This document shows, in pieces, positions 41,319 through 62,215 of a DNA stretch of 64,000 nt. Under the pieces are notes generated by a model. The model worked only from the letters and a program-made list of their open reading frames with translations, was not told where the DNA came from and did no database searches. The stretch spans positions 6,123 through 70,122 of the forward strand of contig JBIKKW010000001.1 of NCBI GenBank assembly GCA_044360115.1, read 5' to 3'. Position 1 is the stretch's first letter. The number at the start of each line of letters is the position of its first letter. The position numbers and the translations under genes were made by a program. This DNA comes from Bacteroidia bacterium. GTDB lineage: Bacteria; Bacteroidota; Bacteroidia; B-17B0; Aurantibacillaceae.

Positions 41319-41358
41319 GTCTCACTTCGACTCCTTCGCCGCGGCGAACAGTGTGACG
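41319..41358. repeat. CGTC-tagged REP-like palindrome with internal perfect 14-bp palindrome
   Basis: GTCTCACTTCGACTCC-TTCGCCGCGGCGAA-CAGTGTGACG. Confidence 0.7.
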
Positions 41359-57015: not shown

Positions 57016-57125
57016 GTCATGCTGTTCCAATAGTTCTCGGGGCTAATTCAGCATCTCAATTCTTAGCTGATTATTGAGTGCTGAGACCCTGAAACAATCC
57101 CGAAATCTATCGGGACAGGGTGACG
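57016..57125. repeat. Inverted doublet of GTCA/CGTC-type REP-like palindromes, each with an inserted hairpin
   Basis: Left GTCATGCTG...CAGCATCTC (57016-57057); right GAGACCCTGAAACAA-TCCCGAAATCTATCGGGA-CAGGGTGACG (57083-57125). Confidence 0.7.
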
Positions 57126-57486: not shown

Positions 57487-59493
57487 GTGAGCACTGATAA
57501 AAAAGAACTTAACGTAGCGTTACTCGGCAATCCGAACGCCGGAAAATCAACCTTGTTTAATGGCCTCACCGGATTAAATCAAAAAACAGGAAACTATACC
57601 GGTGTAACGGTAGATAAATTAGAAGGGCGATTCAAGATCGGTGAACAAACCATTAATCTGATCGATCTTCCGGGAACCTACAGTTTGTTCTCGAAATCCA
57701 TTGATGAAGAGGTAGCTGTTTCAACTTTGCTTTCTGAAAAAGAAAGAACGGATGTGGTGGTTTTGGTGCTTGATTCAACCAACTTAAAACGAAATTTATT
57801 ACTGGCCACTCAAACCCTTGATATGGGCATGAGAACAGTAGTTGTTTTGAATATGTATGATGAAGCCGTTTCGCAAAACATAGAGATCAACATTCCAAAG
57901 CTACAAGAGTTGTTAGGTGTTTCAGTTATTCCGGTTGATTCGAGAAGCAAAGAAGGCATAGATAAATTGAAAGCAGCTATAATCGAGGCAAAACCATCGA
58001 GTGCTAAATTTTATGATCTACAAACTAAAAAAACATATTTACAACAGGTATTCGAACAATTTATTTTAAATGGTAAAGAAAAAGAAGATCTTTTGAAATG
58101 GGAAGAAGAAGATAAGATCTATCGCTTTAAGAACATCAAATACATTTATGGCCTCTGTGTAAAAACCCCGGCCGAACTGCGCTTGAAAGAACTCACTTCA
58201 AAAATTGATAAGGTATTAACCCATAAGATATTTGGATACGCTGTTTTCTTATTCATCCTTTTCATCATCTTTCAATTTATTTTTTATGTGGCTGAATATC
58301 CGATGATGTGGATAGAAGAGGGCTTTATGAAAATTAGTGCTGTAGCTAAAACCAGCATGCCGCAAGGGATGTTGAATGATCTGTTAACCGACGGTGTTAT
58401 TGCAGGGATTAGTGGTGTGTTGATGTTTGTACCGCAAATTACGTTCTTGTTTGTGTTTATTGCCTTGCTTGAAGACTCCGGCTACATGGCGCGTGCCAGT
58501 TTTATAATGGATAAGCTCATGCGCAAGTTTGGATTGAACGGTCGATCGGTTATCCCCATCATCAGTGCCACGGCATGTGCGGTTCCATCTATTTTATCTA
58601 CGCGCTCTATCAGTAATTTTAAAGAACGATTGATCACCATTTTTGTGTTGCCATTAGTAAGTTGCTCGGCGCGTTTACCTGTTTACACCTTGCTAATAGC
58701 CATGATGTTTCCGGATAGCATGGTGTTTGGCGTGTTGAATTTAAAAGGCGTGGTTTTGTTTGGTTTATACTTATTGGGGTTTGTATTCACCTTGATCACA
58801 GCATTTGTGATGCAAAAATTATTAAAGACCAAAGAGGCATCCTTTTTTATGATGGAGATGCCTATTTACCGTTGGCCGTTGTTTAAGAATGTAGCATTAT
58901 CTGTGATCAATAAAGTAAAAGTGTTTGTGTTTGATGCCGGAAAAATAATTGTAGCCATTTCAATCATCCTTTGGTTCATGAGCAATTTTGGTCCGGGTAA
59001 CAAATTAAATGAACTAGATCAACAAAAAACACAATTAGAACAATCACAACAATTAACTCCGGAGTTGAATAAAAAATTAGAAAGTGAAAAGTTAGAGAAC
59101 TCCTATATTGGTTATGTTGGAAAAGCTATGGAGCCTGCTATCCGTCCGCTTGGTTACGACTGGAAAATAGGTATTGCCATTGTTACATCTTTTGCGGCGC
59201 GCGAAGTTTTTGTTGGAACCATGGCAACTATTTATGGTGCGAGTGATAATGAGGATGAAGAAAGTATCAAAGAAAAATTAATGAATGAGAAAAATGCAGA
59301 TGGCACATTAACCTATTCGTTGGCCGTGTGTTTTAGTTTGGTGGTGTTTTATGTATTTGCCATGCAATGCATCAGCACCATTGCCACCGTAAAACGTGAA
59401 ACCAAAAGCTGGAAGTGGCCCTTATTGCAATTCGTTTATTTAACCGTGTTGGCTTATGCCAGTGCGTGGGTTACGTATGTTGTTTTGAAGTAA
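57487..59493 (+). CDS. feoB: Ferrous iron transport protein B
   Basis: GNPNAGKST, GNYTGVTV, DLPGTYS, gate and TM domains. Confidence 0.97.
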   Translation: MSTDKKELNVALLGNPNAGKSTLFNGLTGLNQKTGNYTGVTVDKLEGRFKIGEQTINLIDLPGTYSLFSKSIDEEVAVSTLLSEKERTDVVVLVLDSTNLKRNLLLATQTLDMGMRTVVVLNMYDEAVSQNIEINIPKLQELLGVSVIPVDSRSKEGIDKLKAAIIEAKPSSAKFYDLQTKKTYLQQVFEQFILNGKEKEDLLKWEEEDKIYRFKNIKYIYGLCVKTPAELRLKELTSKIDKVLTHKIFGYAVFLFILFIIFQFIFYVAEYPMMWIEEGFMKISAVAKTSMPQGMLNDLLTDGVIAGISGVLMFVPQITFLFVFIALLEDSGYMARASFIMDKLMRKFGLNGRSVIPIISATACAVPSILSTRSISNFKERLITIFVLPLVSCSARLPVYTLLIAMMFPDSMVFGVLNLKGVVLFGLYLLGFVFTLITAFVMQKLLKTKEASFFMMEMPIYRWPLFKNVALSVINKVKVFVFDAGKIIVAISIILWFMSNFGPGNKLNELDQQKTQLEQSQQLTPELNKKLESEKLENSYIGYVGKAMEPAIRPLGYDWKIGIAIVTSFAAREVFVGTMATIYGASDNEDEESIKEKLMNEKNADGTLTYSLAVCFSLVVFYVFAMQCISTIATVKRETKSWKWPLLQFVYLTVLAYASAWVTYVVLK

Positions 59494-59595
59494 TCGTTTT
59501 TTAACCGCAGAGCTCCGACAATTATTAGAACGCTAAAAAAATCCAAATTACATTTCTTCGTATTAAAAGCACAGAAGGTCTAATGGTCTCGCAGA

Positions 59596-60149
59596 GTTTG
59601 AGATTGCTTCGCTACGCTCGCAATGACGTTTGGTGTGAAATTGTTTCATTCATAATTACAAGGCAGATGAAAAAAACTACTCGTCATTGCGAGGAGGAAC
59701 GACGAAGCAATCTCAAACACAGAACAATTAATATTGCTACAAATTGAAGCAATAATTCCATTGTGTTTATTATAATTTTGTTCCCCTTAAAATAATGAAA
59801 CATGAAGAGAGGAGGCGCCGTTTATATGTTAACAAACAGCAGTAATACTACGCTTTATACGGGTGTCACATCAAATATTGTAAGGCGATTATACGAGCAT
59901 CGCAATGCCGCATTTAAAAAGAGTTTTACATCTAAATACGCTTTAACTAAACTAGTGTATTATGAAGTTCATTTAAGCATTGAAGATGCAATTGCTAGAG
60001 AAAAACAAATTAAAGGCGGTAGTCGTACTAAAAAAGAGAATCTAATACTATCAATAAATCCCAATTGGTATGATCTTTCAAAAGAAGTTGGTGTAGAATA
60101 GATCTTCCAAATCGTTGTGTGAGATTGCTTCGCTGCGCTCGCAATGACG
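59596..60149. mobile_element. Putative REP-bounded GIY-YIG nuclease element
   Basis: Three related CGTC-tagged palindromes (59596-59628, 59682-59718 inverted, 60120-60149) around a lone GIY-YIG gene between housekeeping genes. Confidence 0.6.
59802..60101 (+). CDS. Stand-alone GIY-YIG nuclease (YhbQ/SLX1-like)
   Basis: AVYML...LYTGVT...RRLYEH...AIAREKQIK...NPNW. Confidence 0.93.
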   Translation: MKRGGAVYMLTNSSNTTLYTGVTSNIVRRLYEHRNAAFKKSFTSKYALTKLVYYEVHLSIEDAIAREKQIKGGSRTKKENLILSINPNWYDLSKEVGVE

Positions 60150-60202
60150 AAGGACGTGAGAATTCTTATAAAACTGGCGATAAAAAATTAGCCGAATTCC
60201 TT

Positions 60203-62215
60203 TTAAATCAAACCCTTCAACACATCATCATCCACCTCGTTTGCCCAGGTAACTTTTAAATTTGGTGTGCGTTCCATTTCACGCTTAATGGCAAATTGAG
60301 CTTCTTTATTGCGTGCCCAGCTTCTGCGGGCAATTCCATTATTCACATCCCAAAACAACATTTGTTCCAAACGTCTGTCTGCATCTGCACTACCATCCAA
60401 CACCAAACCAAAACCGCCGTTTATCACTTCGCCCCAACCTACTCCACCGCCGTTATGCAAACTTATCCAAGTGGCTCCTCTGAATGCATCACCCACAAAA
60501 TTTTGCACAGCCATATCCGCCGTAAATTTACTGCCATCGTAAATGTTAGACGTTTCGCGGTACGGCGAATCGGTTCCGCTCACATCATGATGATCGCGAC
60601 CTAACACAACAGGTGCCGAAATTTTTCCTTCACGAATAGCTTTATTAATTGCTTGCGCCACTTTTATACGTCCTTCGCTATCAGCATATAAAATGCGGGC
60701 TTGCGAACCAACCACTAAATTATTTTGCATGGCATCTTTGATCCATACAATGTTGTCGTTCAATTGTTGTTTGATCTCTTCCGGTGCTGTTTTATAAATT
60801 CCGGTCAAAACTTCTTCAGCCAGTTTATCGGTCATGGCAAGATCTTCCGATTTGGCTGAGGTACATACCCATCTAAAAGGACCAAAACCATAATCAAAAC
60901 ACATTGGGCCTAAAATATCTTGTACGTAAGAATTATATTTAAAATCGCCAGCCTTTCCATTCTTGAACACATCGCCACCGGCACGTGATACTTCCAATAA
61001 GAATGCATTGCCATAATCAAAGAAATACATGCCTTTAGCAGCAAATGAATTCACGGCGTTAATATGACGAACCAATGTTTTTTGAACCTCTTGCTTAAAA
61101 CGAGCCGGTTCCTCTGCCATCATCTTATTGCTTTCTTCTAATGAAAAGCCTGCAGGATAATAACCGCCGGCCCACGGATTATGCAAGGATGTTTGGTCAG
61201 AACCAATATCAACCATCATGTTCTCTTTCAACAATCGTTCCCAAAGATCTACTACATTTCCTTGATAGGCATAACTCTTAGCTTCATAACGTTCCTGTGA
61301 CTGACGAACGGCTTTTATTAAATTATCAAGGTTCTCATGCACTTCATCTACCCAACCTTGTGAATGACGGGTTTGAACAGCCTTTGGGTTAATTTCAGCA
61401 GTAATTGAAACCAAGCCTGCAATTTTTGCAGCTTTAGGTTGCGCACCGCTCATTCCGCCCAAGCCACAGGTCACAAATAATTTACCTTTACGTTCTACTT
61501 CCGTTTTAAATTTCTTACGGGCTGCATTCATAACTGTAATGGTAGTGCCGTGTACAATACCTTGCGGACCAATATACATAAAGCTTCCGGCGGTCATTTG
61601 GCCGTATTGCGTTACACCTAAGGCGTTGAATTTTTCCCAATCATCGGGCTTGCTGTAATTCGGTATCATCATGCCATTGGTAACCACAACACGCGGCGCA
61701 TCTTTATGTGAAGGAAATAATCCCATAGGGTGACCGCTATATAAAACAAGTGTTTGCTCATCTGTCATAGTAGCTAAGTACTGCATGGTAAGCAAATACT
61801 GCGCCCAGTTTTGAAATACGGCGCCATTTCCTCCATAGGTGATCAACTCGTGCGGATGTTGTGCTACCGCATAATCTAAATTGTTACTCAGCATGTGCAT
61901 GATGGCAGCTGCTTGTAAACTTTTGTGCGGATAATCTAAAATTGGGCGCGCGTAAATTTTATAATCGGGACGAAAACGATACATGTAAATTCGGCCGTAT
62001 GTATTTAACTCATTTAAGAATTCCTTTGCCAATACTGCATGATGCTTTGGATCAAAATAACGTAAAGCATTTTTTAGTGCCAGTTTTTTCTCTTCGTCAT
62101 TTAAAATGGCCTTACGTTTTGGCGCATGATTAATGTTTGATTCGTAAGGTTTAACTTCCGGTAATTGTGAAGGGATGCCTTGTAAAATATACGATTGAAA
62201 TTCTGTATTGGTCAT
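60203..62215 (-). CDS. hutU: Urocanate hydratase (long form)
   Basis: YGQMTAGSFMYIGPQGIVHGT, SDQTSLHN, GRDHHDVSG, LHNGGGVGWG. Confidence 0.97.
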   Translation of the reverse strand: MTNTEFQSYILQGIPSQLPEVKPYESNINHAPKRKAILNDEEKKLALKNALRYFDPKHHAVLAKEFLNELNTYGRIYMYRFRPDYKIYARPILDYPHKSLQAAAIMHMLSNNLDYAVAQHPHELITYGGNGAVFQNWAQYLLTMQYLATMTDEQTLVLYSGHPMGLFPSHKDAPRVVVTNGMMIPNYSKPDDWEKFNALGVTQYGQMTAGSFMYIGPQGIVHGTTITVMNAARKKFKTEVERKGKLFVTCGLGGMSGAQPKAAKIAGLVSITAEINPKAVQTRHSQGWVDEVHENLDNLIKAVRQSQERYEAKSYAYQGNVVDLWERLLKENMMVDIGSDQTSLHNPWAGGYYPAGFSLEESNKMMAEEPARFKQEVQKTLVRHINAVNSFAAKGMYFFDYGNAFLLEVSRAGGDVFKNGKAGDFKYNSYVQDILGPMCFDYGFGPFRWVCTSAKSEDLAMTDKLAEEVLTGIYKTAPEEIKQQLNDNIVWIKDAMQNNLVVGSQARILYADSEGRIKVAQAINKAIREGKISAPVVLGRDHHDVSGTDSPYRETSNIYDGSKFTADMAVQNFVGDAFRGATWISLHNGGGVGWGEVINGGFGLVLDGSADADRRLEQMLFWDVNNGIARRSWARNKEAQFAIKREMERTPNLKVTWANEVDDDVLKGLI

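Follow-up and report, generated by a model that had tools for sequence, protein, structure and literature searches.

The closest described counterparts of the locus reported here are the Ssn nucleases and the repeats that accompany their genes. SsnA of Neisseria meningitidis is a 94-aa single-domain GIY-YIG protein, and its homologues in several phyla are flanked by repeats resembling the Neisseria repeat NTS (CGTCATTCCCGCGMAVGCGGGAATCYRG) (Chenal et al., Nat Commun 2025, PMC11893778). A repeat is found near 71% of SsnA homologues and on both sides of 42%, and the authors consider the Ssn family about equal to CDD cd10448. Four purified homologues bound the hairpin only in single-stranded DNA (ssDNA) and cut upstream of it, on the same strand only. 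The NTS-ssnA-NTS architecture was called 'identical to' that of insertion sequences and was compared with RAYT, REP (repetitive extragenic palindrome) and IS200 systems, and the role published for Ssn in Neisseria is restriction of incoming hairpin-bearing ssDNA, in transformation (Chenal et al., 2025). Here we describe a 99-aa GIY-YIG gene and its flanking hairpin units in a 64,000-nt stretch of DNA from a Bacteroidia bacterium (GenBank assembly GCA_044360115.1, contig JBIKKW010000001.1, positions 6,123 to 70,122; hereafter, the window). Judged by its sequence, this locus is very likely a Bacteroidota member of the Ssn family, in the form of a cassette of about 550 bp that consists of a hairpin, the ssn gene and an inverted hairpin.

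The hairpins also resemble the CGTC-tagged REPs. This superfamily has been listed in Bacteroidetes, the Neisseria repeat dRS3 being CGTC-1; stems of 8–9 bp and loops of 4–5 nt were reported, and it was concluded that the class has no dedicated enzyme (Di Nocera et al., BMC Genomics 2013, PMC3733652). The original prediction for this DNA repeated that conclusion and proposed an undescribed minimal mobile system. Both statements are superseded by the Ssn nucleases, for which the association of GIY-YIG genes with CGTC hairpins and the cleavage of ssDNA were published in 2025 (PMC11893778). The prediction's analogy to RAYT/REP systems stands insofar as the bracketed layout is the same, but it had already been drawn by Chenal et al. 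(2025). Our literature search found no other paper that connects GIY-YIG genes to repeats of this kind.

The window is contig C8 of a 3.12-Mb assembly (267 contigs, 36% G+C). Both the labels of its closest homologues and a Por_Secre_tail gene at a neighbouring locus indicate Bacteroidota. The intergenic stretch from feoB (57487-59493, + strand) to hutU (60203-62215, - strand), at 59494-60202, contains one open reading frame (ORF) of 99 codons, the ssn-like gene (59802-60101, +), and the neighbours of this ORF encode FeoB and urocanase. Residues 6-80 of the predicted protein match the Pfam GIY-YIG family (PF01541, 7e-15), and there is no second Pfam family. NCBIfam returned only a sub-threshold match to an intron endonuclease and no specific family; the best PDB match is 1ZG2 (E = 0.003). 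The catalytic-type residues Y8, Y19, R29, H33 and E67 are invariant in an alignment with the Neisseria proteins and other homologues.

Much of the basis for the assignment is similarity to NTS-flanked Neisseria proteins of 94-96 aa, with which the window protein shares 46-47% of residues over 91 aa (E about 1e-27). A gammaproteobacterial metagenome-assembled genome (MAG) encodes an NTS-flanked gene whose product is 47% identical, with the same tag-outward layout. In a tree of 43 proteins, the window protein groups in one clade with the Neisseria proteins (SH-aLRT 94), and hairpin types cluster on it, changing 12 times compared with 23.5 times in shuffles (0 of 200 shuffles as low). We file the gene as an Ssn-family member because of the homology, the shared clade and the invariant catalytic residues. 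By homology to characterised SsnA-type proteins, the 99-aa protein very probably nicks the locus hairpins in ssDNA. The gene is under strong purifying selection and is not decaying. The ratio of nonsynonymous to synonymous change (dN/dS) is 0.04 relative to a 91% identical orthologue at locus L224 (GCA_054403755.1), at which 58% of synonymous sites have changed; the dN/dS rows for loci L210, L211 and L216 were misaligned and were left out. An 81%-identical protein (P0035) is labelled as belonging to a Burkholderiales MAG, reflecting either horizontal transfer or a mis-binned contig.

Hairpin units flank the gene on both sides. The pattern GAGATTGCTTCG-N(2-20)-TCGCAATGACG has exactly three matches in the window, at 59600-59628 (+), 59682-59714 (-) and 60121-60149 (+), and zero matches in 100 shuffles. 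Around the gene, the units occur as inverted copies of the general form CGTCATTGCGAG-N-CGAAGCAATCTCA, with identical ends and three different centres (CTACGC, TCGTTCCTCC and CTGCGC). Unit 1 (59599-59628) reads TGAGATTGCTTCG-CTACGC-TCGCAATGACG on the + strand, has its CGTC tag on the minus strand, and forms the left half of an inverted doublet. A spacer of 53 nt (59629-59681) separates it from unit 2 (59682-59715, +; CGTCATTGCGAG-GAGGAACGA-CGAAGCAATCTCA), which marks the left cassette boundary and is of a type that also flanks the 78-91% identical orthologues. Unit 3 (60120-60149, tag on the - strand; TGAGATTGCTTCG-CTGCGC-TCGCAATGACG on the + strand) marks the right boundary, 18 nt 3' of the ssn-like stop codon and 53 nt before the hutU stop. 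Units 2 and 3 thus bracket the gene with their CGTC tags outward. In these respects the original prediction was correct: the nuclease gene lies between feoB and hutU with inverted units on both sides, a third copy forms an inverted doublet with the upstream unit, and the ends are conserved whereas the centres vary. The units are far better conserved than synonymous gene sites; unit 3 with its flank is identical at 36 of 36 positions between this genome (G000) and L224, while the proportion of changed synonymous sites (pS) in the gene is 0.58.

The doublet arms (59617-59628 and 59682-59693) are 100% complementary and 53 nt apart, and as ssDNA the doublet (59596-59722) has a predicted folding energy of -32.6 kcal/mol (z = -7.6). 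Rfam assigns no family at the locus, and the spurious microRNA-hairpin matches on the doublet fall far under gathering scores. No terminator was called at the units, and no T-tract occurs 3' of them. Between unit 2 and the gene is an imperfect 54-nt hairpin (59715-59768, +; inverted repeats I3 and I8; -9.0 kcal/mol, z -3.6) that is partly kept in L224. Within it, 59733-59753 is a tag-less degenerate unit (ATTGCT...AGCAAT). The 54-nt hairpin may represent a unit in decay, or else a site for regulation or binding. The consensus of the Bacteroidota -7 promoter element is TAnnTTTG. Sequence inspection identified a box of this kind, TAATTTTG (59773-59780, +), 21 nt 5' of the ATG, as a candidate promoter inside the cassette; its columns are invariant between G000 and L224. 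A sigma-70 scan gave no score above those of shuffles.

The likeness to Ssn/NTS systems extends to the single GIY-YIG domain of about 94-100 aa, the oriented hairpins on both sides with a CGTCATT head (5') and an AATCTC tail (3'), and the gene-less units and doublets elsewhere in the genome. The stem is not shared: it is ATTGC/GCAAT with a G-A-rich interior at this locus, as opposed to ATTCCCGCG/CGCGGGAAT in Neisseria. The locus unit type numbers 6-7 copies in the genome (three here, one on contig C21, a doublet on C229 and a variant on C255), compared with hundreds of repeats in pathogenic Neisseria, and with so few copies in 3.1 Mb it is not a high-copy REP. Further differences are the phylum, Bacteroidota, and the presence of three Ssn-type paralogues with their own hairpin subtypes.

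Several results weigh against the assignment to Ssn. The published SRM search string (HGTCWYN(0-2)YYVSBRHN(0-5)WNVSBRGN(0-2)RNCYNB; Chenal et al., 2025) was built from 29 genomes and is a search aid rather than a definition; it has no match in the three locus units and none in the whole genome. By standard energy rules, single units are only weak hairpins (-2.7 to -4.8 kcal/mol by nearest-neighbour energies, z about 0). The term 'palindrome' is generous for them, because the stem is only the 5-bp ATTGC/GCAAT, followed by a G-A-rich mismatched interior. We infer from length and context that the Neisseria protein used for comparison is N. meningitidis SsnA. Finally, four genomes of the genus (G021, G101, G114 and G119) have 6-16 units and no nuclease orthologue at E <= 1e-20. 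Thus, hairpins persist without the enzyme; in these four genomes they may have been left after gene loss, or they may be served by another enzyme.

The exact 28-nt NTS occurs at no fewer than 120 loci in public genomes of many phyla, N. lactamica and N. mucosa included. Labels of NTS-bearing genomes include Dehalococcoidia, Planctomycetota, Nitrospirota, Verrucomicrobiota and Gemmatimonadota (loci L068-L187), and an ssn homologue adjoins NTS in only 2 of the 120 fetched loci (each <=8 kb). Neither the N. lactamica NS19 genome nor the N. mucosa genome has an SsnA-type gene; each has UvrC and one other GIY-YIG match. In N. lactamica NS19 this other match is a UPF0213-type 91-aa gene without NTS flanks, and in N. 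mucosa it lies within a 388-aa open frame. Proteins of 94-115 aa within NTS arrays, 40-47% identical to the window protein, are encoded in 12 of 41 genomes of the genus of N. lactamica NS19.

Comparison with relatives supports the nuclease and the hairpins as a real pair. We searched the 350-nt flanks of 39 small GIY-YIG loci, drawn from 61 genus genomes and from 16 genomes in other families of its class, for exact inverted matches of at least 12 nt. Such matches were found at 20 of the 39 loci, compared with 2.3% of 3000 random segments of this genome, and what matches is a hairpin arm in essentially every case. Homologues are therefore more often repeat-flanked than random segments, as the original prediction had anticipated. 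The locus unit type occurs in 22 of the 61 genus genomes, and a reversed-pattern control in 0. A close orthologue (>=78% identity) is present in 5 of the 61, all of which have at least 6 units (Fisher 4e-5), and in 0 of the 51 genus genomes with fewer than 6 units.

The genome encodes five small GIY-YIG genes in addition to UvrC and a match within a 472-aa open frame (contig C44). Three of the five are Ssn-like, and each is located among its own GTCA-tagged hairpin subtype: GTCATTGCGAG...CGAAGCAATCTC at the window gene, GTCATTCTGAA...TTCAGAATCTC and GTCACCCTGAA...TTCAGGGTCTC at the paralogue on C243, and GTCACCCTGAGCGGAGTCGAAGGG and GTCATACTGAG...CGAAGTATAC at the paralogue on C267. A generic scan (any short stem behind any 3-4-nt tag) was swamped by chance stems in this AT-rich genome and was replaced by an arm-aware pattern, which found 75 tagged hairpins (13-27 in shuffles), about 68 of them genuine by eye. 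Nine of these approximately 68 are no more than 300 nt from one of the three Ssn-type genes, where about 0.1 would be expected (Poisson 2e-15). The three stem bases behind the constant GTCA covary (TTC/GAA, TGC/GCA, CCC/GGG, TCC/GGA, CAC/GTG, TAC/GTA and TGT/ACA), and these compensatory changes indicate that the fold is what is kept.

Other tagged hairpins in the window are of the subtypes found at the paralogues. The left half of a doublet near 57.1 kb (57016-57057, +; GTCATGCTG...TTCAGCATCTC, with an enlarged loop) is of a subtype that flanks the C243 paralogue. The right half (57083-57125, -; GTCACCCTG...CAGGGTCTC) has a nested mini-palindrome, TCCCGAAATCTATCGGGA (57098-57115), in its loop. 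A further hairpin (41323-41358, -; GTCACACTG...CGAAGTG) is of a subtype that flanks the C267 paralogue. The hairpins at 41.3 and 57.1 kb had been predicted to share the CGTC tag. They are present and have the GTCA tag, but one reads AGTC rather than CGTC, and they are of other subtypes, associated with other paralogues. An 18-nt mini-palindrome, TCCCGATAnnTATCGGGA, occurs nested in the loops of several tagged hairpin subtypes and in tRNA-like T-arm sequences, at about 20 genome sites (e.g., C243:5355, C267:3213, C161:1898, C31:19527 and C192:4658). Unit 2 of L224 contains this mini-palindrome; unit 2 of the window has none.

The two remaining small GIY-YIG genes (C68:3300-3900 and C192:4600-5100) are of a different subgroup and are not Ssn-like. 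Both are located directly behind a complete tRNA gene and terminator, and each is then followed by a copy of the tRNA 3' end and terminator with a GC-rich hairpin inserted in the T-loop.

The locus units share with CGTC-tagged REPs the unpaired CGTC at one terminus, the short tail at the opposite one, and the inverted dimers. They differ in having a 5-bp stem and a 12-16-nt interior. The GTCACCCTGAA...TTCAGGGTCTC subtype fits the 8-9-bp stem and 4-5-nt loop, and the 57-kb subtype is closer to these dimensions than are the locus units. REP/REPIN-RAYT systems (REPtrons) likewise have a small gene between inverted tagged hairpins that are also found as doublets, and recognition of folded ssDNA would be a second shared trait if the locus protein behaves like its homologues. 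The enzymes are of different kinds (a hydrolytic GIY-YIG nuclease here, an HUH/Y1 transposase there), as are the tags (CGTC, not GTAG), and copy number here is low, with all tagged subtypes together reaching about 68. No match to the Y1 transposase family (PF01797) was found anywhere in the genome. GIY-YIG homing endonucleases (I-TevI, T4 Seg) share the GIY-YIG domain and the setting of a small, selfish-looking gene between host genes. Unlike these, the locus protein has no DNA-binding domain or linker and is flanked by its own sites, and its target is probably a single-stranded hairpin rather than double-stranded DNA. UPF0213/YhbQ/BH0048 (PDB 1ZG2) and Slx1 are similar in being bare GIY-YIG domains of about 100 aa, but similarity to the UPF0213/YhbQ/BH0048 group is weak (E = 0.003) and the UPF0213-type gene of N. 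lactamica lacks NTS flanks.

The history of the cassette can be partly reconstructed from related loci. The feoB-cassette-hutU order is retained on four metagenome contigs that encode the identical 91-aa form and are 98.6-100% identical in DNA sequence over the region. In 29 other species of the genus, no unit was found at a distance of 1.5 kb or less from hutU. G016, G023, G096 and G112 have close orthologues at other sites, with two copies each in G016 and G096; those of G096 are in tandem, 3.7 kb apart. L224 has its orthologue at the same hutU locus, in the order feoB, a 227-aa Por_Secre_tail ORF, an 87-nt hutU copy, unit 2, the gene, unit 3 and the real hutU. The lineage of this species presumably acquired the cassette at the hutU 3' end. 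The suggested search for an empty feoB-hutU allele found none among the genus genomes; feoB adjoins hutU in only one other, G013, where an unrelated 244-aa ORF lies between the two. Comparison of the genus genomes gave neither a clean filled/empty pair nor a short target-site duplication. This genome has no cassette at the site used in G016, G023 and G112, but conservation does not extend to the far flank, and an exact boundary therefore cannot be placed there. The comparative loci yielded no evidence of excision or copying. Of features typical of insertion sequences and miniature inverted-repeat transposable elements, the cassette has the inverted ends and no known transposase domain.

Two related cassettes have long duplicates of a neighbouring gene's 3' end. 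In L224, an 87-nt copy of the hutU 3' coding end (L224:2790-2876, 90% identical) abuts the hairpin, and its end coincides with the point at which native hutU has the sequence CTTCTTTATTGCG and the hairpin has CTTCGTCATTGCG (11 of 13 identical). In G112, the far side of the cassette has a 42-nt copy of the 3' end of the neighbouring gene that includes the stop codon and also abuts a hairpin (L210:1351-1395). Each duplicate meets the hairpin where the native gene resembles a hairpin arm. At 42-87 nt these duplicates are too long for ordinary staggered-cut duplications and appear to be insertion scars. Given such long target 3'-end duplicates at related cassettes, the cassette would be, or would once have been, an inserting element. 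In the window, the spacer of the doublet occupies the position that corresponds to the 87-nt hutU fragment in L224, and it may be what decay has left of a duplicated hutU 3' end; however, it shares only the 9-mer TTTGGTGTG with hutU, which is not significant (p about 0.07-0.24).

By analogy with the purified homologues, the Ssn protein would bind a folded unit only in ssDNA and would read the unpaired CGTC tag. It would then make a hydrolytic cut a few nt 5' of the tag, on the tag-bearing strand, leaving double-stranded DNA, RNA and the complementary strand uncut. Cuts are predicted to the left of unit 2 on the top strand and to the right of units 1 and 3 on the bottom strand. Those at the cassette boundaries would fall just outside it on opposite strands, and the cuts of units 1 and 2 would both be inside the 53-nt doublet spacer. 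GIY-YIG enzymes hydrolyse DNA with no covalent intermediate and cannot rejoin strands as HUH/Y1 enzymes do. Because of this chemistry, and because there is one cleavable cassette end per strand, a RAYT-like single-strand 'peel and paste' does not fit, and spreading, if it occurs, would depend on replication or repair by the host. Junctions that resemble a hairpin arm hint that template switching or recombination at short homologies may be involved. Solo units and doublets elsewhere would be hairpins of an inserting element that occur without the gene.

A broader scheme would make hairpin-ssn-hairpin cassettes true inserting elements with an as yet undescribed mechanism, which would combine a hydrolytic, ssDNA-specific GIY-YIG nickase with host replication or repair. 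They would land at gene 3' ends, at short stretches similar to the tagged hairpin arm, and leave target duplicates of 40-90 nt; tRNA 3' ends would be the targets of a sister group of cassettes, gene-less units and doublets would be miniatures, and the mini-palindrome nested in hairpin loops would be a second tier of this process. We put this scheme forward tentatively and think it somewhat improbable as a whole.

The assignment to Ssn is compatible with several accounts of what the cassette does. In one, the GIY-YIG protein acts as a functional transposase that mobilises both the cassette and the hairpins that lack a gene, in the manner of RAYT with REP/REPIN; this idea was also raised by Chenal et al. 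(2025). The layout is like that of an insertion sequence, with tags outward; the close orthologue is patchy (5/61) and occurs at several genomic sites, twice in G016 and G096; unit counts track it across the genus; and solo units and doublets elsewhere and the target 3'-end duplicates fit as well. Set against these are a hydrolytic chemistry that rejoins no strands, the single cleavable end per strand, from which a single-strand excision circle is not expected, the low copy number (6-25 per genome), the persistence of units in four genomes without the enzyme, and the lack of a clean filled/empty pair or short target-site duplication. We consider this mobilising role doubtful. A second account is spread by homing or repair, in which the nuclease would nick hairpin-bearing ssDNA (the lagging-strand template or incoming DNA), and host recombination or template switching at the short arm homology would copy the cassette with adjacent sequence into new sites. 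The 11-of-13 junction of the hutU fragment in L224, the neighbour duplicate abutting a hairpin in L210, lengths beyond the staggered cuts of ordinary transposases, and the tandem copies in G096 are in its favour. However, clear scars in the family-A clade number just two, a tandem duplication with a later deletion would leave an identical picture with no nuclease involved, and the trace within the window is not significant. We regard such spread as rather unlikely.

A third account is a domesticated host function with no current mobility, in which the protein restricts or trims hairpin-marked ssDNA (in transformation, conjugation or replication intermediates) and the nearby units are ancestral or regulatory sites. 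The strong purifying selection is consistent with this, as are the stable context across four independent metagenome contigs from this species, retention of the locus by the 91% orthologue despite 58% synonymous change, the conserved tag-less unit and promoter-like box inside the cassette, and the published role in transformation (Chenal et al., 2025). Patchy distribution in the genus, several paralogues per genome that each have their own hairpin type, and the insertion scars count against it, and natural competence is not known for the lineage. Domestication is a possible explanation, but not one that we favour as probable. Finally, the hairpins could lie beside a small nuclease gene by chance and be nothing more than terminators or mRNA stabilisers of the REP kind, given that the units are intergenic and unit 3 closely follows the stop codon. 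Coincidence is very improbable, considering the absence of T-tracts and called terminators, association statistics of 2e-15, 6e-23 and 4e-5, the separate hairpin subtype of each paralogue, and the same pairing in Neisseria and other phyla (Chenal et al., 2025).

For the locus as an Ssn-family cassette, what is new here is the occurrence of Bacteroidota hairpins outside the published search pattern, the paralogue-specific subtypes, the co-occurrence of nuclease and units across the genus, and the 42-87-nt scars. The CGTC-tagged hairpin class already has a partner enzyme, the Ssn nucleases, and because the SRM pattern misses the Bacteroidota hairpins, published repeat counts are lower bounds. 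Several nuclease/hairpin pairs in one genome, with distinct stems and the same tag, constitute a natural panel for the study of specificity and for the ssDNA tools that were proposed by Chenal et al. (2025). The long duplicates of target 3' ends provide a testable handle on cassette insertion, which was left as a hypothesis in that work.

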